Shown piece by piece: positions 1 through 54,982 of a stretch of DNA of 64,000 bases. Numbering within the stretch: the stretch's first letter is position 1; the number at the start of each line of letters is the position of its first letter. Under the pieces are notes generated by a model that made no database searches, was not told the origin of the DNA, and was given only the letters and a program-made list of their open reading frames with translations. This DNA comes from a virus, in IMG/VR virus record IMGVR_UViG_3300023276_000008, positions 1 through 64,000 of that record; one strand, 5' to 3'. Position numbers and translations under genes: made by a program.

Positions 1-3
1 ATA

Positions 4-390
4 TTAAAATTCTCTTTCGTCGTAATCTTCTTCGTATTGATCACCTATTGTATGGATGAAAGCTTTGTTAGTTGCATCCACGAAATGGTGTTCAATGTTG
101 GTTAGGAGATAATTGTTACTTCTTCTTGTCGTTGTCGCTGTGTTGATAGTCGGGAAAACCAATTCCTTCTTACCGATATAGAGATCATACTCTGATTGGG
201 GGATTCTGTCAAGTTCATCTTTGATAAACTGAATCTTTTCTGCATCGTAAGCTATAACTTGGTCAATACAGAAGACAGCAACGCCTAGTGGATCACGAAA
301 CCTTGATTTTGCGCCCTTACGGACATAAAAACTAGCTTGCTTCCATTCATCATAGGTCATTGCAGTATCTTCTATACTAAATTCTTCCAT
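4..390 (-). CDS. hypothetical phage protein
   Basis: 128 aa ORF in a tightly packed minus-strand run. Confidence 0.7.
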   Translation of the reverse strand: MEEFSIEDTAMTYDEWKQASFYVRKGAKSRFRDPLGVAVFCIDQVIAYDAEKIQFIKDELDRIPQSEYDLYIGKKELVFPTINTATTTRRSNNYLLTNIEHHFVDATNKAFIHTIGDQYEEDYDEREF

Positions 391-686
391 TAATCTTCTA
401 GTGCTTCAATCTCCATAGGAGTCAGCTTTTTTCCTGTGTTCTTTGGTATTGCTTCTACAGCTCTCTCCAACTTAAATTTACCATGTGTTAAACGATCATC
501 CAATGGATAATCAACAGCTTCATAAGAGGCTTGTAACATGCGTTCTTCCCAATCCTTTAATCCATTATAAGAAGCTCTACGCTTAATCATCGAATGAATA
601 GTATCAATATATGCAGTACATACAAAATGTTGTTTCTCTTGCGCTTCTGTAAGAAGTACGAATTGTTCTAATGTTTTTTGAGTCAT
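390..686 (-). CDS. hypothetical protein
   Basis: 98 aa ORF; stop overlaps next start. Confidence 0.7.
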   Translation of the reverse strand: MTQKTLEQFVLLTEAQEKQHFVCTAYIDTIHSMIKRRASYNGLKDWEERMLQASYEAVDYPLDDRLTHGKFKLERAVEAIPKNTGKKLTPMEIEALED

Positions 687-687
687 G

Positions 688-993
688 TTAAGTGTGTGTT
701 TTAACTAGTGCCTTCATTTGTTTGACTGTATTCATATGATCTTTGATCATGGTTTCAATTGAGTCTGTGGCAAGATTACAATAAGATGCATCACATGACT
801 TAGGTTGCCCTCCACATGGTCTACCTTTATCATCACCTACTCGACTATATCTAAATAGCGGGTTGGGTGTGTGTAGTTTGGTTGATCCAAATGTTGTATA
901 AGGTTCTCTTTCTTCAATTTCATTTAAGATGAAGAATCCCTTATGACATGTAGTGATTAAGTCACCAATCTTCATTCCGTTATATGATTGCAT
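688..993 (-). CDS. hypothetical protein
   Basis: 101 aa ORF downstream of tRNA-Leu. Confidence 0.7.
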   Translation of the reverse strand: MQSYNGMKIGDLITTCHKGFFILNEIEEREPYTTFGSTKLHTPNPLFRYSRVGDDKGRPCGGQPKSCDASYCNLATDSIETMIKDHMNTVKQMKALVKTHT

Positions 994-1017
994 TTTATTA
1001 ATATTTTATTTTTAAGT

Positions 1018-1094
1018 TGGTACATCTGATAGGAGTCGAACCTACAACATTTGGAGCCTAAATCCAACGCCTCTACCAATTGGGCTACAGATGC
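1018..1094 (-). tRNA. tRNA-Leu(TAG), short variable loop
   Basis: GCATCTG/CAGATGT acceptor, TTGGA-TTTAGGC-TCCAA anticodon arm, GGTTCGACTCC T arm, ACCA end. Confidence 0.9.
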
Positions 1095-1319
1095 ATTTGA
1101 TATTTACCTTTCGTTAAAATAACAACAACGTCTTATGATTGATATATAGCACAAGAACTAAAAAGTGTTTTCGGGTGAGTGAGCCTAATAATCTATTTAG
1201 AGAAGTTTCGCTACTCAGTACACCCTAGTTAACTATACATACTCACCAGAGTTGAAGGAATCGAACCCATGTATACTCATTCAACTATAAGGTAATTAAT
1301 CCTATAGAGAATTATTAAT

Positions 1320-1405
1320 TGGTACTGATGACAGGATTTGAACCTGCATACTCCGAAGAGTGGGATGGCTTAAACATCCAGTGTATTCCGTTCCACCACA
1401 TCAGC
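1320..1405 (-). tRNA. tRNA-Leu(TAA)
   Basis: GGATG-TTTAAGC-CATCC anticodon arm, long variable arm ACTC-TTCG-GAGT, GGTTCAAATCC, CCA. Confidence 0.93.
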
Positions 1406-1516
1406 TTTTTATTATTGTTTAAATTGGAGACGATTTAGGACTTTTACCTCATTTTGATTAATAATGCCATCATCGGTAGCAACTATGTTTTCTCCTTGTC
1501 GATCAACTAAGGATGT

Positions 1517-1591
1517 TGGTACATGTGGGGAATTCCGAGATCCCGTCCTGACAATTATCGGTCGTCTGCTCTGCCTCTGAGCTACACATGT
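1517..1591 (-). tRNA. tRNA-Ile(GAT)
   Basis: ACATGTG/CACATGT acceptor, GACGA-CCGATAA-TTGTC, atypical T loop CTCGGAA, CCA. Confidence 0.85.
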
Positions 1592-1602
1592 ATTTTATTT
1601 TA

Positions 1603-1776
1603 TTATTCACTACTAATTCGTAGATTATCTGATGTATGATCCATATGTACACATGGTTGATCTAAACATTCTTGATGATTGTTGAATGCATCATCGCCAC
1701 CATCAAGGAGCCAATCAATAAACTGTTCTTTAAGAATTGGATTATCAAATGTAAGTAATACGTTATTTTCTTCCAT
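1603..1776 (-). CDS. small hypothetical protein (57 aa)
   Basis: MEENNVLLTFDNPILKEQFIDWLLDGG... read by hand; below ORF-track cutoff. Confidence 0.6.
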   Translation of the reverse strand: MEENNVLLTFDNPILKEQFIDWLLDGGDDAFNNHQECLDQPCVHMDHTSDNLRISSE

Positions 1777-1793
1777 AATTTTTTAATTCATCA

Positions 1794-1872
1794 TGGACAC
1801 TATCCTTACCGCTTAGTCTTAACGGATAGTGTCCCATACATATATTCGTGATGGTATAGCGGTGAATATATG
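1794..1872 (-). ncRNA. two-hairpin element with complementary loops (candidate kissing-loop RNA)
   Basis: stems CATATATTC/GAATATATG and GGACACTATCC/GGATAGTGTCC; loops carry ACCGCT and AGCGGT. Confidence 0.45.
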
Positions 1873-1876
1873 GTAT

Positions 1877-1951
1877 TGGTACAAGATGCAGATACCGATT
1901 CTGCGACCTATTGAGTGTAAACCAATTGCTCTACCATTGAGCTAATCTTGC
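1877..1951 (-). tRNA. tRNA-Val(TAC)
   Basis: GCAAGAT/ATCTTGT acceptor, ATTGG-TTTACAC-TCAAT, T loop ATCGGTA, CCA. Confidence 0.88.
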
Positions 1952-1958
1952 ATTTGAT

Positions 1959-2319
1959 GTTAATAGTCAGTGAGTATTGTACTGACACCTCACTGACTAT
2001 TAACTATGTAGTTTGTGACGTTATCCACACGCCCCCTTCATGATACTACAATCACTTGCTATGTCTTTTGCGGATTTGTAACATAGCTTCATTGTCCGAA
2101 CTGGTTCGCGCTAAGAAGAAGCGTTCCGAACTATCTTTGTTTAGTTTCGATGAATGTATTGGTTGAACGTATGTCAAGTTGCGCTTGACAGGTTCTGAAT
2201 AATTAATCCTCTATATTCATCTAGATTGTTTTTGTTCTATGTAATCTAATCACAGGCATCTTTTTGTTGATTTGTAGAATGCGTTCTCTCGACATACTGT
2301 ATTTGTTTTGTATACCGAG
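1959..2319 (-). ncRNA. multi-hairpin structured RNA between tRNA-Glu and tRNA-Val
   Basis: about nine consecutive helices including a perfect 16 bp stem (1959-1974/1989-2004); no ORF in the track. Confidence 0.55.
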
Positions 2320-2321
2320 CT

Positions 2322-2397
2322 TGGTATTCCCAATGGAACTCGAATCCATTTCTAGCGAGTGAAAGTCGCTTGATTTAACCATATAATCTATAGGAAC
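2322..2397 (-). tRNA. tRNA-Glu(TTC)
   Basis: GTTCCTA/TGGGAAT acceptor, AGCGA-CTTTCAC-TCGCT, T loop TTCGAGT, CCA. Confidence 0.9.
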
Positions 2398-2404
2398 ATT
2401 TATT

Positions 2405-2515
2405 TTATTTTTTGTAATCTATACCTAATTTAATACAACGCTTTCTTACTGCGTTGTCACTGACATTATAGTATTTTCCCACCTTAGTCAAGGGGATTCG
2501 GTCAATTACTACCAT
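2405..2515 (-). pseudogene. 36 aa HTH fragment, possible remnant of a homing endonuclease
   Basis: PLTKVGKYYNVSDNAVRKRC resembles HTH modules of phage HNH endonucleases. Confidence 0.45.
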
Positions 2516-2607
2516 TTTTTCCATAGAGCTGACACTCCAAGACATAATAGTTTACCTACTATACATCCTGCGACGAAGCACAGTATTGTTATGGTTTGCT
2601 CACTCAT
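2509..2607 (-). CDS. 32 aa single-TM peptide
   Basis: MSEQTITILCFVAGCIVGKLLCLGVSALWKKW, coupled to neighbours. Confidence 0.45.
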   Translation of the reverse strand: MSEQTITILCFVAGCIVGKLLCLGVSALWKKW

Positions 2608-2610
2608 TTT

Positions 2611-2838
2611 TTATAGGTTACTCTCTATTAGTTGAATTGCATCATCTGCCATGCCATTAATATGACTCATTACATCATTAGCACTCCATCCTTCAAATGC
2701 TACCCACTCATGATCCGAAAGAAATTCATCTTGATCTTCTTCTGACATATCACGCCAATCATCAGGAATGTGTTCAGTGAGAGCGTTTCCGCTCATTTTC
2801 TGTAGGACTTTGAATTTTTGCTCTTTAGTTAGTTTCAT
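2611..2838 (-). CDS. hypothetical protein
   Basis: 75 aa ORF directly behind early promoter repeat copy 1. Confidence 0.75.
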   Translation of the reverse strand: MKLTKEQKFKVLQKMSGNALTEHIPDDWRDMSEEDQDEFLSDHEWVAFEGWSANDVMSHINGMADDAIQLIESNL

Positions 2839-3545
2839 TTGCTTTGCTTGTTTGCGTTGGCAGATCCTAGCACGATTTGGGGGTCTTGGTCAAGCTCTTT
2901 CGGGTCTTTTTCTTCCTTTTTATTTGGTATTTGGTGAGGTTGCTTGATTCCGTGGTATAATCCCATTTCATCGCCCAATTTAACCTCTTTCCAATCAACA
3001 AACGGAAGATCCATTATACCAATAATAGCACCTTCTGCCTTTGCCACACTTGGAAATCTCAATTCATTAATAATGTCTTTATCGAATGTTTCATTCCACT
3101 TGTCTTGAGATATTGCATCTAATACCCATCTCTTCACGAAGAATGCTCCAAATGAAACTAAACCAATTGGGTCACATTCCATTCTACTAGCTTCTGACCA
3201 CCAGTTCCAATGTTGTCCCATTTTATAAACCCATTTTCCTGCAAGGTCTAAACCATATGGTAGTGATGGTAATTCTCCTTTCATTAGTGTGTCCCATTCA
3301 AAGATTGCGATAGTGTCACTATCAATACTCTGTCCATGAACCTTCCACCAATTACGAAGTTTCCTATCTCCATTCCGCCATGCTTCATCCCTTGAAATAG
3401 AATCATCAACATCTGAGATGATCTCTACTCGTACATCGGGATTATAAAATTCCAACCACTCTAAATGAGGTACAACTAATTCATTAGTTATATTGTCTCT
3501 ATGAGTAAGTATAAGAACTGTCGTTGGTTTATGGTTTATTATCAT
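2835..3545 (-). CDS. putative glycosyltransferase-like protein
   Basis: N-terminal VLILTH strand and IAIFEWD DxD-like motif; weak. Confidence 0.4.
   Translation of the reverse strand: MIINHKPTTVLILTHRDNITNELVVPHLEWLEFYNPDVRVEIISDVDDSISRDEAWRNGDRKLRNWWKVHGQSIDSDTIAIFEWDTLMKGELPSLPYGLDLAGKWVYKMGQHWNWWSEASRMECDPIGLVSFGAFFVKRWVLDAISQDKWNETFDKDIINELRFPSVAKAEGAIIGIMDLPFVDWKEVKLGDEMGLYHGIKQPHQIPNKKEEKDPKELDQDPQIVLGSANANKQSK
2864..2915 (-). promoter_or_regulatory. early promoter repeat copy 1
   Basis: CCCGAAAGAGC-TTGACC-N18(ending TGC)-TAGGAT. Confidence 0.8.
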
Positions 3546-3567
3546 TTGTTGTTGGTTGATGCGGCAG

Positions 3568-3620
3568 ATCTTAGCACGATTTGTTGCTCTTGGTCAAGCT
3601 CTTTCGGGCTTTTTCTTCGA
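3568..3620 (-). promoter_or_regulatory. early promoter repeat copy 2
   Basis: CCCGAAAGAGC-TTGACC-N18-TAAGAT, extended -10 TG. Confidence 0.8.
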
Positions 3621-3627
3621 AATAAAT

Positions 3628-3703
3628 TGGTGTGAATGATGGAAGTCGAATCCATGACCGTCAAATTAAAAGTTTGCTGCTCTACCCACTAAGCTACATT
3701 CAC
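3628..3703 (-). tRNA. tRNA-Lys(TTT)
   Basis: GTGAATG/CATTCAC acceptor, loop CTTTTAA, T loop TTCGACT, CCA. Confidence 0.92.
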
Positions 3704-3704
3704 A

Positions 3705-4358
3705 TTATTTAAGATATTTTTCTATATCTGGCATACCTTTGTACCAGTTAAATTGTTTTGCTGTTCGTTTTCTATGACAGTTGGCGCATCTTGTTTCGCA
3801 TTTATTCAACTCTTCTATAATTCGTTTCCAACTATATGATTCTCCGACCATCTCTGATATATTTTTAAATTTTGTATCTACATCTCTATGATCTGAATCT
3901 AATATGACTGGATTTGCTTCTCCGCAATCTATACAAGGGTTATCTAAATAGTAGTTAAATATTGAACGCATGTTCTCCATCCTAACCCTTTTATTTCTCT
4001 CTTGTACCGCTATCTTATGTTCTATTGGGTTCTCTTTATAGTATTGTCTAGATCTGATATTACTACACACTCTGCACATTGTGTTATACCCATCTGGTTT
4101 TGTCTTATTCTTATTGAAGGATTCTAATGATTTTATTTCTCCACACATAGAGCATGATTTTTCGAAGATATCCTTTTTAGATTCTTTCGCCAACATACTT
4201 TTATAGTTGGCAAAACATTGACTTGTGCAATAGTGTGTGTCGCCACCAGTCATGATAGATCTCTTCATTCTCTCAAATGAAATCCCGCAATGGTCACAAT
4301 TGATATCTATATAATCTCTATATTTGGCATTAGTTAGTTCATCCCTATTTGGTATCAT
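3705..4358 (-). CDS. HNH homing endonuclease with Zn-finger repeats
   Basis: CxxC repeats; CIDCGE...DSDH...CANCHRKRT. Confidence 0.8.
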   Translation of the reverse strand: MIPNRDELTNAKYRDYIDINCDHCGISFERMKRSIMTGGDTHYCTSQCFANYKSMLAKESKKDIFEKSCSMCGEIKSLESFNKNKTKPDGYNTMCRVCSNIRSRQYYKENPIEHKIAVQERNKRVRMENMRSIFNYYLDNPCIDCGEANPVILDSDHRDVDTKFKNISEMVGESYSWKRIIEELNKCETRCANCHRKRTAKQFNWYKGMPDIEKYLK

Positions 4359-4422
4359 ACCTATATTTAGTGTATGACTACCCTACTTTTAAGATAACCC
4401 TCTATTTAAAAACCGATTAAAA

Positions 4423-4653
4423 TTATAGATTATCAAACTCTGGATATCCACCATTTAGGGCATATTCAGCACCTAGTGAGTCTTCCCATTCATTGGGGGG
4501 TGATACTGCTTGTCGAACAAGATAATATACACCATTTCTAATTCCATACAGTCTTACAAAGACAGGATAGGTTCCCATTTTGTTCGTACATGGAATGATA
4601 ACGAAGTCATCAAACCGCCTGAATAATTTATAATATTTTAGTTTTGTTAACAT
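4423..4653 (-). CDS. hypothetical protein
   Basis: 76 aa ORF. Confidence 0.6.
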   Translation of the reverse strand: MLTKLKYYKLFRRFDDFVIIPCTNKMGTYPVFVRLYGIRNGVYYLVRQAVSPPNEWEDSLGAEYALNGGYPEFDNL

Positions 4654-4730
4654 TGTTTGTTTGTGTTAGTTGTACAAGATACGTTGTTTATTTCCAATAA
4701 TAATTTTAATAATTGCTGTATGTATCTTTA

Positions 4731-4806
4731 TGGCGGTCTGGACGGGGTATGATCCCGCAACCTCATGATTGACAATCATGTGATCTACCAATTGATCTAC
4801 CAAACC
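4731..4806 (-). tRNA. tRNA-Asp(GTC)
   Basis: GGTTTGG/CCAGACC acceptor, CATGA-TTGTCAA-TCATG, G73, CCA. Confidence 0.92.
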
Positions 4807-4812
4807 TTTTGT

Positions 4813-5097
4813 TTATAATAGTTTCTTTAATACTTCTAATTCATGGGCAGATAGTTTATCTACCATCTTCTTGATGCGCCTGTCATCTTCTTGCCTATGT
4901 TTATACCAGAATGGAGAAATTGCAATTTGTCCATTAGCCTCTGCATTTTCAATGAGTATACTTTGATCAATATTAGGATCATTTGTAATCTCAGTGAGTA
5001 ATGCACAAAGCATTGCCTCTAATACTGTATTTTTTGATTGCTCTTGTTGATAGTTTGAATAATAATCATCTTGGCATCGTGAGTCTGAACATGGCAT
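4813..5097 (-). CDS. hypothetical protein
   Basis: 94 aa ORF. Confidence 0.7.
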   Translation of the reverse strand: MPCSDSRCQDDYYSNYQQEQSKNTVLEAMLCALLTEITNDPNIDQSILIENAEANGQIAISPFWYKHRQEDDRRIKKMVDKLSAHELEVLKKLL

Positions 5098-5098
5098 A

Positions 5099-5275
5099 TT
5101 ATTTATCTTCTAGTTTAAATGTTTGAAATGTACCTACTGACTTATAGTTAGTAAGTGATTGGTATGCCGAAGCATTTGGATTGTTGTTTCGTGATACGAT
5201 TAGTGCTGTATTGATATATGTAAATATCGCTACGAGAGCTAGTAGTGTTCCGAAGTATTTGTTACTGATTTTCAT
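5099..5275 (-). CDS. 58 aa membrane protein
   Basis: MKISNKYFGTLLALVAIFTYINTALIV... read by hand; fills the gap between ORFs. Confidence 0.55.
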   Translation of the reverse strand: MKISNKYFGTLLALVAIFTYINTALIVSRNNNPNASAYQSLTNYKSVGTFQTFKLEDK

Positions 5276-5471
5276 TTGTTGTGCTGTTACTATTAATGAT
5301 TTCTTGGAGGTAATTCGTCAATCCTTCGATGTCTTGGTCATCCATGTAAGACTCAATAATTATATCTAACAAGCTAGTTGGATCAAAGTATTCAGAGGTT
5401 TTACAGAATTTATTAAAAATCTCTCTGTCGTGAGCCGTTGCTTGGTCAAAATGGTGATTGAATGTTTTCAT
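5262..5471 (-). CDS. hypothetical protein
   Basis: 69 aa ORF behind promoter repeat copy 3. Confidence 0.7.
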   Translation of the reverse strand: MKTFNHHFDQATAHDREIFNKFCKTSEYFDPTSLLDIIIESYMDDQDIEGLTNYLQEIINSNSTTNENQ

Positions 5472-5499
5472 TTATTTGTTGGTTGTTGTTGCTGGGGCT

Positions 5500-5552
5500 A
5501 GTCTAGCACACCTTTCGGGGTTTGGTCAAGCTCTTTCGGGCTTTTTCTTCGA
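5500..5552 (-). promoter_or_regulatory. early promoter repeat copy 3
   Basis: CCCGAAAGAGC-TTGACC-N18-TAGACT. Confidence 0.8.
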
Positions 5553-5558
5553 TTTCTT

Positions 5559-6119
5559 TTAAGATATATGATATGTTGGAATTTGATAACCCCTTCCGAC
5601 AGGAAGATTCATTGGCTGTACACCACATATTTCAGCAGGTCTTAATTCTGGAAATTTCATATTCTCTTTATAGAATATTTTCGTTCCTATAGTTTCCAAT
5701 GTTTCATATGTGGAAGCATCAATTGAATGGTCTTCATCCCACACTGCGAACCAATAAGGTTTAGTTCTTGGGTTGAATTCTAAATATTTGCGACATTGAG
5801 GCATATGTATTGTGGGAAACCCCTCTTTGAGATTCTTAACATCACGTTTCTTAAATTTAAGAGGGGTTCTAAACTTTGGCTCTTTAACAGCTTCCACCTT
5901 TACACTCTCACATTCAACCCATGCACATACTTTCTTATGCCCTCCTACGAAGATCTTCAATGCTGTTGTTGGTTGATTCCTAAGAAAGCAATTAGTCATA
6001 GTCACTGTATACAGGCTAGGATCGTAATACCTAACTGCACCGCTAGGATAAACTACTTTCCATTTCATATAGTTCTTACCTCTCGATAAGTTGAATCTGA
6101 CTTTTGCTAATCTTTTCAT
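5559..6119 (-). CDS. hypothetical protein
   Basis: 186 aa ORF. Confidence 0.75.
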   Translation of the reverse strand: MKRLAKVRFNLSRGKNYMKWKVVYPSGAVRYYDPSLYTVTMTNCFLRNQPTTALKIFVGGHKKVCAWVECESVKVEAVKEPKFRTPLKFKKRDVKNLKEGFPTIHMPQCRKYLEFNPRTKPYWFAVWDEDHSIDASTYETLETIGTKIFYKENMKFPELRPAEICGVQPMNLPVGRGYQIPTYHIS

Positions 6120-6120
6120 T

Positions 6121-6543
6121 TTAAATGATTTCTATTGGTGTTAGTGTTGCATCACTCGCTTCTGCTTCATCTACAAACACTACTGTATATTCCCATTTGT
6201 GGGGTATGATACATAAGTTCGTGAAAATATGAATTTGTTTTGCTTCTTCGTCTGTTTCTGCTTCCATCCTAATTTCTAGAACATCCCACCCACCATCAGA
6301 TTCATATGGCTCATGAACAAATCTAAGTATTGTAGACATTGGAGCCTTGCCCTCACCTTTCCATTCCGTTACTCTTTCGGAAGTGGAGCCATTTTTGTCA
6401 ACCGCTAAATATTTGTGGTTGATTGTGTCAAAATGCAACACTAATTCGCCCCTTTTATTAATACCAGTTTTTAGGTTGTTGATGATTATTTCGGCACTAT
6501 ATTCTGAATCACCTACTACACTATATCCTTTGAAGAATTTCAT
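6121..6543 (-). CDS. hypothetical protein
   Basis: 140 aa ORF. Confidence 0.75.
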   Translation of the reverse strand: MKFFKGYSVVGDSEYSAEIIINNLKTGINKRGELVLHFDTINHKYLAVDKNGSTSERVTEWKGEGKAPMSTILRFVHEPYESDGGWDVLEIRMEAETDEEAKQIHIFTNLCIIPHKWEYTVVFVDEAEASDATLTPIEII

Positions 6544-6564
6544 TATTTTATTATTTTATTATCT

Positions 6565-6640
6565 TGGCTCTAGTGGGAGGGTACGATCCTCCAACCCTTC
6601 GAGTAACAGTCGAATGCTCTACCAATTGAGCTACACTAGA
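6565..6640 (-). tRNA. tRNA-Asn(GTT)
   Basis: TCTAGTG/CACTAGA acceptor, TTCGA-CTGTTAC-TCGAA, G73, CCA. Confidence 0.92.
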
Positions 6641-6692
6641 TTTATGTTGTGTCGGAGTATGCTTAACACCCTCTCCGACTAGGGTAAATTGT

Positions 6693-6872
6693 TTACCAGT
6701 TAGTAACTATCCACTTTACCAATACATATGCTGCTACGAATGGAGCAAAGAATATCCATAAGACTAGATCTCGACCTGTGAAGTCTACTTTATGTAAGCC
6801 TAATATCATTATTGATAGAAGCCATATCATCAGTATGAACTCTGTTATTGTATTTGGTGGTTGTTGATTCAT
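6693..6872 (-). CDS. small two-TM membrane protein
   Basis: start moved to MNQQPP downstream of promoter copy 4; two hydrophobic segments. Confidence 0.65.
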   Translation of the reverse strand: MNQQPPNTITEFILMIWLLSIMILGLHKVDFTGRDLVLWIFFAPFVAAYVLVKWIVTNW

Positions 6873-6895
6873 TGGTTGGTTGTTTGCGTTGAGCG

Positions 6896-6941
6896 ATCTT
6901 AGCACCAAATCGGGGTCTTGGTCAAGCTCTTTCGGGCTTTT
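6896..6941 (-). promoter_or_regulatory. early promoter repeat copy 4
   Basis: CCCGAAAGAGC-TTGACC-N18-TAAGAT. Confidence 0.8.
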
Positions 6942-7365
6942 ATTTGCCTTTTAAGCAATTTAGCTCATTTTCCAGTTTGGAAATGCTGTTTCTAAGCTCT
7001 TTACGCCTTTTTGAATTCTTTTCTTTCTGTATAGCTACATTCTCAAGATATGATCTATTATCAGATAGATATTTTTCATATGTTTCTAATTGAATTTTAT
7101 ACACTCGCATAAACCCAGCCATTTCATCTTCAGTATATCGATCTGCTTCACCACATGCATATATGGTAGGTTGATCTCCTACATCATAACAATCTTCATT
7201 GTCTAGACCGAATGAAATATCTTCCATGTCAATGTCATATTCAACAGACAGGGCATCGGCTAACTCTATAATATCTTTCATTGATATTGTTTGATGGTCA
7301 AAGTCTGTGTCATGCTTGTTATAACGTGTTACTTTTGAATTTCTTGGTTCAGTTGGTTTTCTCAT
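6940..7365 (-). CDS. hypothetical protein, C-terminal coiled coil
   Basis: 141 aa ORF. Confidence 0.7.
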   Translation of the reverse strand: MRKPTEPRNSKVTRYNKHDTDFDHQTISMKDIIELADALSVEYDIDMEDISFGLDNEDCYDVGDQPTIYACGEADRYTEDEMAGFMRVYKIQLETYEKYLSDNRSYLENVAIQKEKNSKRRKELRNSISKLENELNCLKGK

Positions 7366-7400
7366 TTGTTTAATTGTTTAATTGTTTAATTGTTTAATTG
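7366..7400. repeat. 8 bp tandem repeat (TTGTTTAA)x4
   Basis: read directly; lies between tRNA-Ala CCA and the next ATG. Confidence 0.9.
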
Positions 7401-7478
7401 GTGGAGTGTGAGGGTACTGACCCCTATATTTTAACTTGATTGCAAATCAAGTGCAACACCCATGTTGCCACACACCCC
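7399..7478 (-). tRNA. tRNA-Ala(TGC), non-canonical 8/4 fold
   Basis: GGGGTGTG/CACACTCC with G3.U70, CTTGA-TTTGCAA-TCAAG, AGGG-GTCAGTA-CCCT, ACCA. Confidence 0.8.
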
Positions 7479-7487
7479 TATATATTT

Positions 7488-7922
7488 TTAGCTGTCATAA
7501 CTGAAAAGTTTATCCATATACTTATTATTGTCTGGTAATTGAGGTATTGTTTGTTTTTCATTTTTGGAAAGATCGTTAATAATCTGTTCTTTGAGTTTGT
7601 TATACTTCATTGGATCAAAGTCAGGATCTTCCAAATATACAAGAAGCTTCTCATTGATCTTTTCGAGTTTTTGGTTTTCGGTGTGTTCTATGTTATTGCG
7701 TTTAAGCATTGCATTAATACGTTTATCATTCCATCCAGCAATAAACATTAATATGTTTACTAATGGAAAGTAGCACATAAACACTGCTTCACCTTGCCTA
7801 TATATATCGTAATGAGATAAAGGTTTCTCAAAATCTTTCCTAACATTTAAGTGAAAACATACTGATACAATCACATGTGTTAGTGCTATACAGCTTACAA
7901 CGTATATCTCTGTGTTGGTCAT
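7488..7922 (-). CDS. membrane protein
   Basis: 144 aa, two hydrophobic segments. Confidence 0.7.
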   Translation of the reverse strand: MTNTEIYVVSCIALTHVIVSVCFHLNVRKDFEKPLSHYDIYRQGEAVFMCYFPLVNILMFIAGWNDKRINAMLKRNNIEHTENQKLEKINEKLLVYLEDPDFDPMKYNKLKEQIINDLSKNEKQTIPQLPDNNKYMDKLFSYDS

Positions 7923-7928
7923 GGGCTT

Positions 7929-7956
7929 ACCCTAGCGGATAGGCTCAGATTGTCAA
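7929..7956 (-). promoter_or_regulatory. sigma70-like early promoter
   Basis: TTGACA-N16-TAGGGT, ATG 6 nt downstream. Confidence 0.6.
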
Positions 7957-7975
7957 CGAGAAACTTTGTCTAAAT

Positions 7976-8050
7976 TGGGTGATCGACGGGATTCGAACCC
8001 GCGCAGACAAATTTCACAAATTTGGGCACTACCACTATGCTACGATCAAC
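7976..8050 (-). tRNA. tRNA-His(GTG)
   Basis: G-1, CAAAT-TTGTGAA-ATTTG, GGGTTCGAATCCC; acceptor end slightly irregular. Confidence 0.88.
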
Positions 8051-8076
8051 ATTTAAGTTTATACATCTTCATGTAT

Positions 8077-8150
8077 TGGAGTTTATAGAGAGAATCGAAC
8101 TCTCGTACCTAACATACCAAGCTAGTGTTCTACCATTGAACTATATAAAC
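8077..8150 (-). tRNA. tRNA-Thr(GGT)
   Basis: GTTTATA/TATAAAC acceptor, CTAGC-TTGGTAT-GTTAG, GAGAG-TTCGATT-CTCTC, CCA. Confidence 0.88.
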
Positions 8151-8155
8151 TTTGT

Positions 8156-8230
8156 TGGTTGGAAGTATGGGTAACGATCCCATCTATGCAATTTTTCAGA
8201 CTGCCACTAATCCATCTCAGTTAACTTCCA
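8156..8230 (-). tRNA. tRNA-Phe(GAA)
   Basis: TGGAAGT/ACTTCCA acceptor, GCAGT-CTGAAAA-ATTGC, T loop ATCGTTA, CCA. Confidence 0.88.
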
Positions 8231-8317
8231 ATTGGTGCGTTTATACATCGCCATGTATGTATAAGAGGAATGGTTAGATTTTTAAACGCACCCTCAAGGA
8301 TTGTCCATTCATTATAT

Positions 8318-8391
8318 TGGTCGGTGATGTCAGATTCGAACTGCATCTCAAGCTCCCAAAGCCCACGTGTTACCATTACACCACACCTCCG
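8318..8391 (-). tRNA. tRNA-Pro(TGG), irregular acceptor/T stem
   Basis: C1-G72, A73, TGGGC-TTTGGGA-GCTTG, T loop TTCGAAT, CCA. Confidence 0.85.
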
Positions 8392-9009
8392 TTATTTATA
8401 ACCCTTTCTATGTTGAAAGAGTCCTCTATTATTTCTATTATCAATTATATGTAAATTTTTACCACCCTTGTCCCCAATTTTATTTTTTCTTCTATATTCA
8501 GACGACTCACATTCACGAATTATACGCTCTTGTTGGCGACCTGTCAACTTTATATTTTCTAAATCTTTATACCAAATGTTACTTTTGGTGAATCCAGATA
8601 TTTTCTTCATTACAAATATCTGTGAATTTTTAATTCTATTTATAAGATTGTTTGGAATATGATGTTTAGTTCTCAGCCAAGAAGCATATTCTTTATATAC
8701 TTCGTCATCCAATATACCTTTTGTTATGGTCTTTATCAGATCAACGTCTCCATCTTTTGGAATATATTTATCGTCTATCGCCTTATGTATAAGGTTATGA
8801 CATTCTCTACACACTGGCAGTAAATCCGTCACCTTAATATCCACTAAATTTCTATATACCATATGATGCACATCTGTAGCTTTATCTCCACAACATTCAC
8901 AAACACAATGTAAATTCATTACCTGATTTCTTAAGGCTTTCCATTCATCACTTCTAAGATATTCTGTTCTATATTCATGTCTATTATACTTTACTTTATA
9001 TTCACTCAT
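8392..9009 (-). CDS. HNH endonuclease
   Basis: CECCG...DVHH..Y...LLPVCRECHNLIH; start may extend to 9033. Confidence 0.85.
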   Translation of the reverse strand: MSEYKVKYNRHEYRTEYLRSDEWKALRNQVMNLHCVCECCGDKATDVHHMVYRNLVDIKVTDLLPVCRECHNLIHKAIDDKYIPKDGDVDLIKTITKGILDDEVYKEYASWLRTKHHIPNNLINRIKNSQIFVMKKISGFTKSNIWYKDLENIKLTGRQQERIIRECESSEYRRKNKIGDKGGKNLHIIDNRNNRGLFQHRKGYK

Positions 9010-14485: not shown

Positions 14486-15916
14486 CTAAATATCCCAAAC
14501 TATTTTCTTTATTTCTTCAAAACTCTGATCTCTCAGAAGAACACCATCCTTATAGACAGGTTCTAGATAATCTCTCTCTGGAGAATCTTCATCTAGTTGG
14601 GGGACAGTTACGAGAATTCCATTTCTTTTAACAGTTGAGAATTTTCCAGATAGACTACGTTTAAATGCCTCTGTGGTTTTCTTCTTAACATCTCTCCACA
14701 CTCCAAAGAATTTTTGGCAACTAGCTTTGAACGCAGTTGCCAATACATCTCTATGGAAATCACGTTGAAGTAATCCACCCCCCATACCAACTAACATATT
14801 CTCAGCACTCCATCCATTATCAATGAGTGTTTGATACACTTCCGTAATGTCATTTTGTGTTAATGAATCTCCATAAATGGCTCCGATACATGGATGCAGT
14901 ACATTATACCCTTTATCATTTTGGGTAAACCCGAATATTTCGCCAAGTTCTTCTACAAGCCACAAACATTGCTTTGCTGGGGTATCCCCTTCAAATCTTT
15001 TTGAATCTGGTCGAATAACAGTCTTATTAACAAGACCTTTTCCATTTTTCCAATGAGCAATAATATCTTCTTTGAGAATTGGTAGTTTATCCATGACAAA
15101 TTGGACAATTCCATTAGTGTCTGCTACAAAGGACTTAATACCATTTGGGTGTTTCTTGAGAATGTTTCTAACATATGATAATTCACCCACACCCTCCCCA
15201 TAAGGGGTACTGACTGCATGTTCAGTGGCTCGAACTGATTTAAGTAAATTGGTCACATCTGCATTATAGTAATTTACTGCATATGGGACTGCCATCATTG
15301 AATCGGATGAAATTGTATTAAGTAATACGCTCATTCCTCCAAGACCAGCTTGTTCCATACATGTAGTGCCCCTCTGTCCAAAATCCACAAGACTATATTG
15401 ATAGAGCCATTCATTATCTGAACTCTCATCCATAAATCCCTTAATACCCTTCACAATCTCATGTGATCTTGTAGCACACTGCATTGTATACCAGCCAGTT
15501 TGAATGACTGTCTCAAGTGCAGACGATAACCATCCATAACCATCTTTCGTGGCTTCCACAGTAACTAAACAAGTTAGTTTTCTTGTTTTACTGCCTTCTG
15601 GAATAGCCTTAATAAGAACTGGGAGTTTGCCTCCCATTTCGTCAATAATCTTCTGCCAAGACTCATGATTAATACATGAATCATCACCAAATGCATGAAT
15701 GGCAAATTCCTTTGCTTCATTGAGCATGGCTTGTGTTACAACAGGAATGAGCCATTTCTTGATGATGCCTTGCAGCCCGAAGAAAATTGATTCTTTGTGT
15801 GTTTCATCACTTCGACACACCATATATGAATAACTATTCTCAAATCCTTCTGGATAGAGACTTTCGTGATCCCATTTATATGCGTCTAGTGTAAAAATTA
15901 AATTATTAGTGATCAT
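14486..15916 (-). CDS. nadV: nicotinamide phosphoribosyltransferase
   Basis: DAYK..H...YP, FFGLQ, DFGQRG, ATEH, IRPDS, GGGLLQ. Confidence 0.92.
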   Translation of the reverse strand: MITNNLIFTLDAYKWDHESLYPEGFENSYSYMVCRSDETHKESIFFGLQGIIKKWLIPVVTQAMLNEAKEFAIHAFGDDSCINHESWQKIIDEMGGKLPVLIKAIPEGSKTRKLTCLVTVEATKDGYGWLSSALETVIQTGWYTMQCATRSHEIVKGIKGFMDESSDNEWLYQYSLVDFGQRGTTCMEQAGLGGMSVLLNTISSDSMMAVPYAVNYYNADVTNLLKSVRATEHAVSTPYGEGVGELSYVRNILKKHPNGIKSFVADTNGIVQFVMDKLPILKEDIIAHWKNGKGLVNKTVIRPDSKRFEGDTPAKQCLWLVEELGEIFGFTQNDKGYNVLHPCIGAIYGDSLTQNDITEVYQTLIDNGWSAENMLVGMGGGLLQRDFHRDVLATAFKASCQKFFGVWRDVKKKTTEAFKRSLSGKFSTVKRNGILVTVPQLDEDSPERDYLEPVYKDGVLLRDQSFEEIKKIVWDI

Positions 15917-20024: not shown

Positions 20025-21016
20025 TGACCTTTGTAGTATGCTACATAGTGTTTAACTATTTCATCAATAGCATCCTCATATGGAACGGTTTCAAAACCAC
20101 GTAAATAGTATTTTGAAGTGATAGCATAGATCTTATCATGACCTTTTCTATCATCTACAAATTCAACACTATTTACCATAGTTTTTTCACTTTCAGGCAC
20201 TAGCTTATTATAAGCCGTCAATATGTCCTGAACCAATTCCAAATTATTCTTAGGTGTGCCTCCCGAAATGTTGTGAACACCTCTTGTGTGCTCTCCTGCG
20301 ATCTCTAAGATAGACTTGCAGTGGTCATCAACATGAATCCACTCTCTAATGTTGTCTCCTTCTCCATAAACAGGGATTTTCTCACCTGCAACCAACTTTG
20401 AAATGATAGTTGGAATAAATTTTTCTGTACGTTGGTAAATACCAAAGTTATTAGTACATCTTGTCACCAATACATCAATGTCATATGTACTTACATATGC
20501 CTCACACATAAGGTCTGCTGCTGCTTTTGATGCAGCGTATGGATTCCTTGGTTGTAATTGAGAATCTTCAGTATGGGGCTTTGCACTTGTAGTTAGGTGG
20601 TGTCCATACACTTCATCTGTACTGATTTGAATCATTTGGATATTATGCCCTTTCTCCTTTTCACACACTACATGATTTAGTAGTGCCATAGTGGATGTTA
20701 GGTTTGTTGCGAATGTTAGTGGATCTGAGATAGAACGATCAACATGTGATTCGGCAGCAAAATTGAAGATAACATCATATCTATCTACGTCTGGAGAAAA
20801 TGCATAGCGTTCAATGCGTGTATGACTCAAATCTACTATCTTGTTATCGTAGAATTCTTTCGAAAAATGTTGCCTAAGATTGAAGGCGGGGGCGTAGTCC
20901 ATACACATCACCAATCCAATGTTTGGATACATTCCTTCCAACGTGGCTAAGAAGTTTTGGGCTATAAATCCGCTAGTGCCAGTTATTAGCACTCGTTTTC
21001 CGTTTAGGTCGATCAT
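20021..21016 (-). CDS. rmlB: dTDP-glucose 4,6-dehydratase
   Basis: GTSGFIA, FAAESHVDRSI, ISTDEVYG, YAASKA, DRKGHD. Confidence 0.93.
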   Translation of the reverse strand: MIDLNGKRVLITGTSGFIAQNFLATLEGMYPNIGLVMCMDYAPAFNLRQHFSKEFYDNKIVDLSHTRIERYAFSPDVDRYDVIFNFAAESHVDRSISDPLTFATNLTSTMALLNHVVCEKEKGHNIQMIQISTDEVYGHHLTTSAKPHTEDSQLQPRNPYAASKAAADLMCEAYVSTYDIDVLVTRCTNNFGIYQRTEKFIPTIISKLVAGEKIPVYGEGDNIREWIHVDDHCKSILEIAGEHTRGVHNISGGTPKNNLELVQDILTAYNKLVPESEKTMVNSVEFVDDRKGHDKIYAITSKYYLRGFETVPYEDAIDEIVKHYVAYYKGQ

Positions 21017-50858: not shown

Positions 50859-50895
50859 AAAAAGGGCGAGGTTTAATAACCTCGCCCTTTTTTTT
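50859..50895. terminator. bidirectional intrinsic terminator
   Basis: A5-GGGCGAGGTT/AACCTCGCCC-T8 between convergent genes. Confidence 0.9.
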
Positions 50896-54898: not shown

Positions 54899-54922
54899 TA
54901 GTTATTCATTTTTATATTTAAC

Positions 54923-54962
54923 AAAAAAAAAGCGTGATCTTAATCGATCACGCTTTTTTTTT
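54923..54962. terminator. bidirectional intrinsic terminator
   Basis: A9-GCGTGATC/GATCACGC-T9. Confidence 0.9.
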
Positions 54963-54982
54963 GTTAAATTGTGTGTGGATTA

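Follow-up and report, generated by a model that had tools for sequence, protein, structure and literature searches.

Spacers of tRNA operons are known to serve as sRNA sponges, and the 3' external transcribed spacer of the Escherichia coli glyW-cysT-leuZ operon is one of them: a short, cellular RNA that pairs with RyhB and RybB. In phages, the large, ornate RNAs GOLLD and ROOL are often found near tRNA genes. Bacteriophage T4 makes two stable RNAs from its tRNA cluster, RNAC and RNAD, whose role, in the sections of PMC3014915 and PMC9697503 that treat them, has gone without explanation for decades. They follow tRNA-Arg in the T4 annotation, rnaD at a distance of 1 nt and rnaC 6 nt beyond rnaD. 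A further relevant system is CrcZ of Pseudomonas, an RNA of 407 nt in which, as PMC4063720 describes it, six A-rich stretches sequester Hfq.

The stretch of DNA analysed here (the window, 64,000 nt) belongs to an 84,951-nt contig with a T4-type terminase and sheath and baseplate genes, and its source is an uncultured marine T4-like myovirus. Between two of its tRNA genes lies a spacer of 370 nt (1952-2321, minus strand; 38.9% A on the RNA strand), which is proposed to be a non-coding RNA gene. The spacer runs from the first base after the encoded CCA of tRNA-Glu(UUC) (2322-2397, minus strand; found by ARAGORN, and by Rfam at 57.2 bits) to the last base before tRNA-Val (1880-1951, minus strand; Rfam 57.4 bits). 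The latter has an unusual T loop and was detected by Rfam only, being missed by ARAGORN; its anticodon, UAC, was read from the Rfam alignment. The RNA would be read from the minus strand, the strand that also carries every neighbouring gene, tRNA and promoter-like repeat. The nearest upstream sigma-70-like promoter match on that strand (2864-2893; TTGACC and TAGGAT separated by 18 nt with TG) sits within a 77-nt repeat (family D1) that is present in four copies, and is probably where the transcript containing the RNA begins. No minus-strand terminator was predicted between 900 and 3700. A promoter or terminator belonging to the spacer itself was sought and rejected, as it contained only weak 9-of-12 matches and fewer matches overall than its shuffles. 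Two traces of homing endonucleases occur nearby: ORF 2405-2545 is a 46-codon remnant (PHROG HNH, E 0.00034), and ORF 3705-4358 is an HNH homing endonuclease gene (E 2.8e-30).

The spacer is non-coding in character, and the evidence supports an RNA of no described family. No Rfam 15 family, 6S and IMES RNAs among them, reached its gathering score in 1952-2321; at E values up to 10 the sole overlap was mir-181, a chance match on the other (plus) strand that scored 16.3 bits where gathering requires 45.5. No tmRNA was found by ARAGORN or Rfam and no RNase P RNA by Rfam, in agreement with the earlier note, which had seen the hallmarks of neither. By the same comparison the RNA is no relative of GOLLD or ROOL. 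A tRNA remnant was also rejected, there being no tRNA match up to the same E value. All six reading frames are closed by several stops each, and they yielded no protein family, the best E being 0.031 in Pfam and 0.2 in PHROG, and no paralogue among the 296 ORFs of the contig; a decayed paralogue or a known protein family was rejected on these grounds. The 53-codon ORF, whose start lies inside tRNA-Glu, had no relative among 5.8 billion proteins.

Searches for homologues outside the immediate lineage returned nothing that aligned with the spacer. When 1400-2900 was compared with 50,697 phage records by blastn in its distant mode, nine records matched, all over the tRNA at 1520-1591 only, and within its own contig the spacer matched only itself and its own hairpin. 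Exact patterns searched in IMG/VR gave 12 loci for a 16-mer, all of them chance matches of 16-17 nt, and none for two 20-mers; two patterns searched in GTDB genome contigs gave none. A pattern for the 3' end of tRNA-Glu found two loci, the L016 contig and L027, where coding sequence follows the tRNA. The neighbouring 236-aa protein has 15 relatives (38-97% identity), of which the three closest, at 97, 72 and 64%, are encoded on ENA contigs, and its alignment led to 11 viral and 20 metagenome loci (28-46% identity), which with L026 and L027 make 33. Among these distant relatives the spacer had no nhmmer match and a best blastn E of 3.1, and their inter-tRNA spacers hold zero to three copies of ACAAA. 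The two that were folded gave z = -1.00 (L016) and z = -1.16 (L021). A pairwise MAFFT alignment with the L016 spacer showed scattered identities only and was unsupported by nhmmer or blastn. The variants compared with the window are near-identical ones from one lineage. No description of the RNA was found in the main texts of the literature searched; the candidate list of PMC10690425 may include the region.

The spacer is covered by contigs from RNA libraries of two studies. In cDNA run X14 (13 million letters) a 272-nt contig with a depth of 239.2 lies over 2017-2268, and in oligo-dT run X12, from another study, a 343-nt contig with a depth of 35.9 lies over 1989-2268; contigs of this kind give no strand, ends or level, and their depth cannot rank genes. 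Covering the whole 84,951-nt contig 239-fold would need 20 million letters, more than the entire X14 run, so the depth is not carry-over of phage DNA. The X12 and X14 contigs extend 46 and 16 nt further toward 2321, in diverged sequence, without reaching into any tRNA or ORF; the absence of X12 and X14 cover over the flanks (1500-1988 and 2317-2815) carries no weight as evidence. The X12 contig ends against an Illumina adapter at 1989, inside the terminal hairpin described below rather than at 1952, a weak hint that the RNA may have a different 3' end. No joint suggestive of a circle or of splicing was reported in these two RNA runs. Four further RNA runs, X15, X18, X19 and X20, matched with small shares. 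With the closed frames and the lack of any Rfam, Pfam or PHROG match, this cover supports the proposal of the earlier note that the spacer encodes a novel non-coding RNA.

Both RNA contigs carry the same variant. It departs from the window by four substitutions, lacks 2 nt at one place and has 6 nt inserted at another, and over its 5' 50 nt its likeness to the window is below 80%. Three of the substitutions fall at positions unpaired in the minimum free energy (MFE) structure and the fourth turns a G-C pair into G-U, so that all four are compatible with that structure but too few to serve as a test of it. The insertion is a duplication within a hairpin loop, and the deletion, at a helix junction, puts the 41-codon ORF out of frame. 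By eye, the 3' arm of the first helix is altered in the variant; its partner arm lies outside the view. The spacer is conserved in the manner of a module: in a 1309-nt contig from DNA run X6, the 384 nt corresponding to 1947-2330 are identical, with no other letter, and both flanks are replaced, 284 other letters standing in place of 2331-2815 on one side and the order of the window being left at 1947 on the other.

One pentamer is in clear excess. ACAAA occurs eight times on the minus strand of the spacer, against 1.99 ± 1.27 in dinucleotide shuffles, and none of 5000 shuffles reached eight; 49 of the 5000 reached eight with any 5-mer, which leaves about 1% after correction for the choice of word. 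When the minus strand was scanned in 1273 sliding windows of 370 nt, only one reached eight copies, and the spacer is the densest ACAAA site of the whole 84,951-nt contig. The excess is strand-specific, the maximum per window being eight on the minus strand and four on the plus strand. All eight copies fit (A/U)ACAAA(A/U). On the minus strand, copies 1 and 2 (2307-2311 and 2302-2306) are in the hairpin of the first helix, copies 3 and 4 (2271-2275 and 2263-2267) lie between the arms GCATT and GATGC, and copy 5 (2231-2235) lies between the arms TAGATT and AATCTA. Copy 6 is at 2136-2140, copy 7 (2075-2079) is in the loop of GCTATGT/ACATAGC, and copy 8 (2012-2016) overlaps the 3' arm of the helix TGTAGT/ACTACA by one base.

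The earlier note had ACAAA recurring in unpaired loops; the recurrence is real, but the display in loops is at chance level. When the motifs were fixed in place and the remainder of the sequence was shuffled (n = 400), the three copies of eight that fall in MFE hairpin loops compared with 1.57 ± 1.15 in the controls (78 of 400 reached three), and the unpaired fraction of 0.85 with 0.78 ± 0.10 (116 of 400 reached 0.85). Words bound by familiar sponge targets are not enriched. An Hfq (ARN)n sponge was rejected because (ARN)3 occurs three times against 3.31 ± 2.00 expected and (ARN)2 11 times against 16.21 ± 3.33. The proposed analogy with CsrB fell, and a CsrA sponge with it, because GGA is at chance (4 against 3.72 ± 1.40). 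The MazF idea gained no help from plain ACA: its 18 copies compare with 15.69 ± 2.07 when dinucleotides are preserved in the shuffling (567 of 3000 reached 18) and with 10.43 ± 2.92 in mononucleotide shuffles (35 of 3000), and a plain-ACA decoy was not supported by the first comparison. The word AANAANAA, counted as a further mark of a CrcZ-type Hfq sponge, occurs three times against 0.91 ± 1.05, a count reached by 241 of 3000 shuffles. Mimicry of translation start regions was likewise rejected, for ACAAA is enriched 2.5-fold upstream of genes but not above other A-rich words.

Hairpins stand at both ends of the spacer on the minus strand. The terminal hairpin (1959-2004) has 16 perfect base pairs, its arms 1959-1974 and 1989-2004 being fully complementary as the earlier note had read them, and a 14-nt loop. 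It lies 7 nt from the next tRNA, has no U tail, is one of 10 perfect hairpins of at least 12 bp in the 84,951-nt contig and is likely to block 3' exonucleases. The 5' hairpin (helix 1, 2288-2319) pairs 2310-2319 with 2288-2297 over 10 bp, is present in the MFE and centroid structures, and has a 12-nt loop containing two ACAAA. Every one of the nine helices named earlier was located where it had been placed, for example GCTATGT/ACATAGC at 2081-2087 with 2058-2064, and only some of them are included in the MFE structure. The nine alone amount to -55.65 kcal/mol and, when enforced in the fold, to -82.6, compared with an MFE of -88.4 kcal/mol for the whole spacer. That MFE corresponds to z = -4.58, none of 100 minus-strand shuffles being as low, but with the terminal hairpin removed (2007-2321) z was -1.38, while 29 other minus-strand windows had a mean z of -0.72 (sd 1.44). 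Most of the folding signal comes from the terminal hairpin. The ornate multi-hairpin fold that had been proposed is, outside the terminal stem, no better than chance; the A-rich middle between the two end hairpins is not demonstrably structured.

We consider it somewhat likelier to be right than wrong that the spacer is the gene for a stable non-coding RNA of about 370 nt that is freed from a tRNA precursor and may act as an ACAAA sponge. The minus-strand transcript would carry tRNA-Glu, the RNA and tRNA-Val in that order; the RNA would receive its 5' end from 3' processing of tRNA-Glu and its 3' end from the RNase P cut at the 5' end of tRNA-Val. Release by processing of the flanking tRNAs, as first suggested in the earlier note, fits the layout and agrees with both RNA contigs stopping short of the tRNAs; the ends given here are predicted rather than mapped. 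The 10-bp hairpin would begin 2 nt from the 5' end and could shield the RNA from 5'-end-dependent RNase E, and the 16-bp hairpin would stop 7 nt from the 3' end and could shield it from 3' exonucleases. Such shielding may let the RNA accumulate far above neighbouring mRNA.

The possible action of the RNA is a more tentative matter. It may titrate a sequence-specific single-strand RNA-binding protein or endoribonuclease, of host or phage, by serving as a multivalent single-stranded platform in the manner of CrcZ or CsrB with a different word, ACAAA; we regard this decoy function as possible, though well short of an even chance. The more specific proposal, that an abundant sponge RNA uses eight single-stranded (A/U)ACAAA(A/U) sites to bind and withhold a single-strand RNA-binding factor of the infected host, is distinctly unlikely as it stands. 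Candidate factors would be a toxin RNase of the ACA class from a defence system or, in a host whose translation starts do not depend on Shine-Dalgarno pairing, ribosomal protein S1.

The RNA might have no function at all, being a by-product of leftover inter-tRNA DNA, such as a decayed insertion in a region rich in homing endonuclease genes, that accumulates through tRNA processing and the 16-bp hairpin. We think this rather unlikely, but the ordinary fold outside the terminal hairpin and the chance-level loop display of ACAAA agree with it, as do the homing endonuclease gene and 46-codon remnant beside the spacer and the unrelated spacers that occupy a similar place in distant relatives (for example, the 332 nt after tRNA-Glu in L016, with z = -1.00). 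It accounts poorly for 384 nt that are identical in a strain with replaced flanks, for the fourfold excess of one pentamer, for six frames with no trace of a protein family and no paralogue, and for the very high depth in a small RNA run. In the mosaic strain the conserved block has its limits within 5-9 nt of the tRNA edges, which could be a trace of recombination at the ends of tRNAs and would then suit an element acting in cis or at the DNA level rather than a trans-acting RNA. It might be a module for processing or decay control of the tRNA transcript, with RNase III or RNase E entering at the long stem, or else a site of recombination or replication built of inverted repeats and repeated 5-mers. 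The end of the X12 contig inside the hairpin and the plus strand of the spacer, which also folds better than its shuffles (z = -2.98), lean the same way. Such an element is nevertheless quite improbable, given that the deep material in RNA libraries is the RNA itself, that the ACAAA excess is confined to one strand, and that a processing site needs no 300 nt of conserved A-rich sequence.

The motif could also act by base pairing, as UUUGU, its exact complement, might be offered by the anticodon loop of a tRNA-Thr(UGU) with U32 or by a host mRNA or sRNA, for which the RNA would be a sponge. The RNA itself is free of UUUGU because the plus strand of the spacer lacks ACAAA, which counts in favour of this reading, and the tRNA-operon sponges provide a precedent. 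Pairing over five nucleotides is weak, however, and no phage target was found, the best complementarity across the 84,951-nt contig spanning 14 nt (E 0.096) within the tail sheath gene; pairing is very improbable on this evidence, and an antisense regulator of a phage gene was rejected on the same match. Least probable of all is a messenger for a micro-protein, for which the best candidate is the 23-codon ORF at 2021-2092 on the minus strand, which encodes four Cys and lies in the part where the window and the RNA-run variant agree. Shine-Dalgarno sequences are rare in this phage (4 of 66 genes), so the absence of one here is no counterargument. The 20 nt before this ORF, however, are G+C-rich and paired in the MFE structure, whereas real starts are preceded by 45-60% A; the 41-codon ORF loses its frame in the natural variant through the 2-nt deletion, the 53-codon ORF begins in tRNA-Glu and is without relatives, and there is no Pfam or PHROG match.

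The stable RNA proposed here lies in the same kind of place as the T4 RNAs, is unrelated to them in sequence, and is represented deeply in ocean RNA from two studies, which suggests that large phages often deliver other stable RNAs through their tRNA transcripts. Its repeated pentamer is a concrete handle for pull-down, which the T4 RNAs lack. Were a host factor titrated, the RNA would be an RNA-based tool of takeover or counter-defence and would account for some of the RNA in marine metatranscriptomes that has no assignment. If the sponge reading is true, this would be a phage-encoded, protein-titrating RNA and the first function for a class of stable RNAs from tRNA clusters that is 50 years old.

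Set against the described systems, the spacer RNA resembles GOLLD and ROOL as a large phage non-coding RNA adjoining tRNA genes, but it is shorter, has no Rfam match to E 10 and folds in an ordinary way outside one hairpin. With the leuZ 3' spacer it would share release of a functional RNA from a tRNA precursor by tRNA processing, although no pairing partner for it was found in the phage contig. The idea of one motif shown repeatedly on a multi-hairpin RNA recalls CsrB and RsmZ, from which it differs in its chance-level GGA and in having no Rfam match. With CrcZ it shares a similar length, a short A-rich word that recurs six to eight times in single-stranded parts, and the titration proposed; unlike CrcZ, it is not enriched in the (A-R-N)n word of the Hfq distal face, does not match the Rfam CrcZ family, and would come from a phage tRNA transcript rather than from its own regulated promoter. 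In position the RNA resembles the T4 RNAs. Like rnaC and rnaD, the spacer RNA has no Rfam family and belongs to a T4-type phage, in whose tRNA cluster it lies on the same strand, abutting a tRNA; it is placed between two tRNAs, whereas the T4 pair stands at the end of its array, and it is about three times longer than RNAC (species 1, 139 nt) or RNAD (species 2, 119 nt). The sequences show no likeness (no nhmmer match, best blastn E 8.4), neither rnaC nor rnaD contains ACAAA, and the 3' end of rnaC reads as a tRNA-like T arm whereas the spacer RNA has no tRNA match. T4 yields stable RNAs; here short and deep contigs, which carry no information on ends, strand or stability, cover the spacer alone in the RNA libraries of two studies.

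The reading of the 370-nt spacer at 1952-2321 (minus strand) as a non-coding RNA gene is well founded. It is one of just two stretches of at least 250 nt in the contig that lack an ATG-ORF of at least 45 codons, and each of its six frames is interrupted several times by stop codons. Translated with X at the stops, the frames matched no family in PHROG or Pfam (best E values 0.031, for a plus-strand frame, and 0.2), and the only one of the contig's 296 ORFs with any likeness to the spacer is the ORF that overlaps it. As for shorter coding possibilities, a 53-codon ORF starting inside the upstream tRNA has no relative among 5.8 billion proteins, a 41-codon ORF is frameshifted by a 2-nt deletion in a natural variant, and a 23-codon ORF (2021-2092), which might still be coding, is preceded by a stretch that is G+C-rich and paired, unlike the real starts of the phage. 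A tRNA-like remnant was also sought, and none was found in the spacer at Rfam E values up to 10.

The earlier note had proposed a novel non-coding RNA, and this held when the Rfam check was run: no Rfam 15 family reached its gathering score, the frames are closed, and contigs from RNA libraries cover the spacer. Up to an E value of 10 the sole overlap was mir-181 on the other strand, which is a chance match. The absence of tmRNA hallmarks was likewise borne out, no tmRNA being found. Nothing like the spacer was present in 50,697 phage records, in 33 loci from distant relatives or in T4 rnaC and rnaD; nor was any likeness returned by scans of IMG/VR (three exact words) and of 185,579 species genomes (two exact words), which detect only near-identical copies. 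Among the distant relatives, locus L016 carries a 332-nt spacer (14976-15307) directly after a tRNA-Glu(UUC), near a neighbouring protein that is 37% identical; this spacer has no Rfam match, is dissimilar to the window RNA and folds with z = -1.00. In locus L021, tRNA-Met and tRNA-Trp are separated by 376 nt (20080-20455), and this gap contains several pieces that resemble T arms and acceptors, all ending in CCAATTT; they are probably unconventional tRNAs missed by ARAGORN and Rfam.

The region 1500-3000 is present, at least partly, in 24 listed runs from 20 studies; six of these runs are RNA libraries. Contigs were examined in four runs. A cDNA run (X14) yielded a single 272-nt contig of depth 239.2 over 2017-2268, and an oligo-dT RNA run from a different study (X12) a single 343-nt contig of depth 35.9 over 1989-2268. 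Both consist of spacer and enter no tRNA or ORF, and the remaining contigs of these runs on 1500-3000 have depths of 4 to 16; such contigs tell neither strand, ends nor rank, and RNA libraries can contain DNA. The X14 run totals 13 million letters, and 239-fold cover of the 84,951-nt contig would need about 20 million; the depth is therefore local, which fits RNA. By arithmetic the spacer contig makes up about 0.5% of that run, and the spacer RNA probably abounds in the ocean.

The variant is the same in both contigs: it has four substitutions, lacks 2 nt at 2107 and has gained 6 nt behind 2203. Past 2268 they continue for a further 16 nt (X14) and 46 nt (X12) below the 80% threshold; judged by eye, this is homologous to the 5' part, with about three quarters of the positions identical. 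On the minimum free energy (MFE) structure three substitutions are unpaired and one turns G-C into G-U, the insertion duplicates six bases within a hairpin loop, and the deletion falls at a helix junction. These changes are compatible with the predicted fold but far too few to test it. All five ACAAA copies of the aligned part are unchanged; by eye, the diverged 5' part has lost one. In a DNA run (X6), a 1309-nt contig is identical to the window over 1947-2330, its flanks differing on both sides: 2331-2815 is replaced by 284 other letters, and the window's order is abandoned at 1947. What stays intact is therefore the spacer with a few adjoining bases from either tRNA; mosaicism in the array reaches down to single cassettes.

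The source is a T4-type myovirus, marine and uncultured. The IMG/VR contig (84,951 nt, the window being its first 64 kb) has a completeness rating of 41%, with PHROG matches to a large terminase carrying an insert, a tail sheath and a baseplate wedge; no cultured phage has a terminase more than 34% identical to it, the closest being Synechococcus phages B3 and B23. The tRNA array occupies 1-9,000 on the minus strand, interspersed with small ORFs and homing endonuclease genes. Upstream of the spacer lies tRNA-Glu(UUC) (2322-2397, minus; CCA encoded), and downstream a tRNA with its anticodon read as UAC (Val) (1880-1951, minus; Rfam 57.4 bits). ARAGORN misses the latter, as it does a tRNA at 1520-1591 (minus; Rfam 43 bits), and both have an unusual T loop. 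Just upstream of tRNA-Glu, a 46-codon ORF (2405-2545, minus) has a match to an HNH homing endonuclease PHROG (E 0.00034) that is confined to the family's C-terminal part (138-176 of 183) and, from this match, looks like a homing endonuclease remnant; a full HNH gene lies at 3705-4358. The word AATAAAATAAA occurs at 1594-1604 and 2399-2409 (minus), at most 3 bases from the 5' ends of the tRNA at 1520-1591 and of tRNA-Glu. The word may act as a promoter or as a signal for processing; with up to one mismatch it has 16 matches in the window against 9.6 +/- 3.1 expected.

A 77-nt repeat occurs four times (2844-2920, 3548-3624, 5480-5556 and 6876-6952, minus strand). The copies are 62-82% alike and carry a TTGACC-type -35 element and a short GC hairpin, and a promoter scan found an extended -10 element in two of them (2844-2920 and 3548-3624). 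On these repeats, which are probably early promoters for the array of tRNAs and micro-genes, contigs from several strains accumulate, in RNA as well as DNA runs. The spacer would be transcribed on the minus strand from the sigma-70-like promoter in the repeat at 2844-2920, or from a nearer one; no terminator is predicted in between. RNase P cleavage at tRNA-Val and 3' maturation of tRNA-Glu would then free the RNA, and its end hairpins may shield it. Across the whole window, a Shine-Dalgarno-like core precedes only 4 of 66 crude gene calls, and regions upstream of genes are 45-60% A, with TAAATA-type words, a T4-late-promoter-like signal, enriched up to 8-fold. This suggests that the host initiates translation without Shine-Dalgarno pairing and points, as a lead rather than as evidence, to S1-type recognition of A-rich leaders being important in that host.

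All nine helices previously listed were found in place. The terminal hairpin (1959-2004) has 16 perfect pairs and a 14-nt loop, and is one of ten perfect hairpins of at least 12 bp in the contig. Four of the others are flanked by A and T runs; the terminal hairpin has none around it and so lacks the look of a terminator. Two-way terminators are suggested by perfect hairpins of 15 bp (50859-50892) and 24 bp (54916-54969), which are situated between convergent or divergent genes and have runs of A and T on their flanks. One hairpin starts 2 nt from the start of the spacer RNA, and 7 nt separate the 16-bp hairpin from the downstream tRNA. Folding of the full 370 nt gives -88.4 kcal/mol (z = -4.58); among 29 other minus-strand windows of the contig, one has z below -4. 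The ornate multi-hairpin fold envisaged earlier was not upheld: once the terminal hairpin is removed, z is only -1.38, against a mean of -0.72 (sd 1.44) in those 29 windows.

ACAAA occurs 8 times on the RNA strand against 1.99 +/- 1.27 in dinucleotide shuffles, none of 5000 reaching 8; corrected for word choice, some 5-mer reached at least 8 in 49 of 5000. Of 1273 minus-strand sliding windows just one attains this count, the spacer being the densest ACAAA site in the whole contig, and six of the eight copies read (A/U)ACAAA(A/U). The recurrence of the word thus stands, but its proposed display in loops lies within controls in which the motifs were fixed and the rest shuffled: at least 3 motifs fell in MFE hairpin loops, as in the real sequence, in 78 of 400, and the motifs were at least as unpaired in 116 of 400. 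Their A-richness accounts for the single-stranded state of the words. The non-coding spacer thus shows a pentamer excess on one strand only, and it is conserved like a cassette. As for function, its RNA might serve as a multivalent platform of single-stranded sites, titrating an RNA binder or RNase that recognises a specific single-stranded sequence; this is the function chosen here, at rather long odds. Of the known sponge words, (ARN)n, GGA and, in dinucleotide shuffles, ACA are all at chance in the spacer, and the decoy role suggested earlier drew no support from the tests run. No phage RNA target stands out by complementarity (best 14 nt, E 0.096).

Analogies to the window RNA are offered by GOLLD, ROOL and the leuZ 3' spacer sponge; kinship with GOLLD or ROOL is excluded by Rfam. 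The nearest model for the proposed action is CrcZ, a 407-nt RNA described as sequestering Hfq through six A-rich stretches (PMC4063720, in the part consulted), although its defining word is not enriched in the spacer. The nearest precedent is provided by T4 RNAC and RNAD, two stable RNAs of the T4 tRNA cluster whose role is given as unknown in the parts consulted of PMC3014915 and PMC9697503, and which the T4 annotation places directly after tRNA-Arg. They share with the window RNA their place and likely route of release, but differ from it in sequence, size and ACAAA words, and the spacer RNA lacks the tRNA-like end read in RNAC. The spacer RNA is a new sequence family, probably belonging to the tRNA-cluster stable RNAs of T4-type phages.
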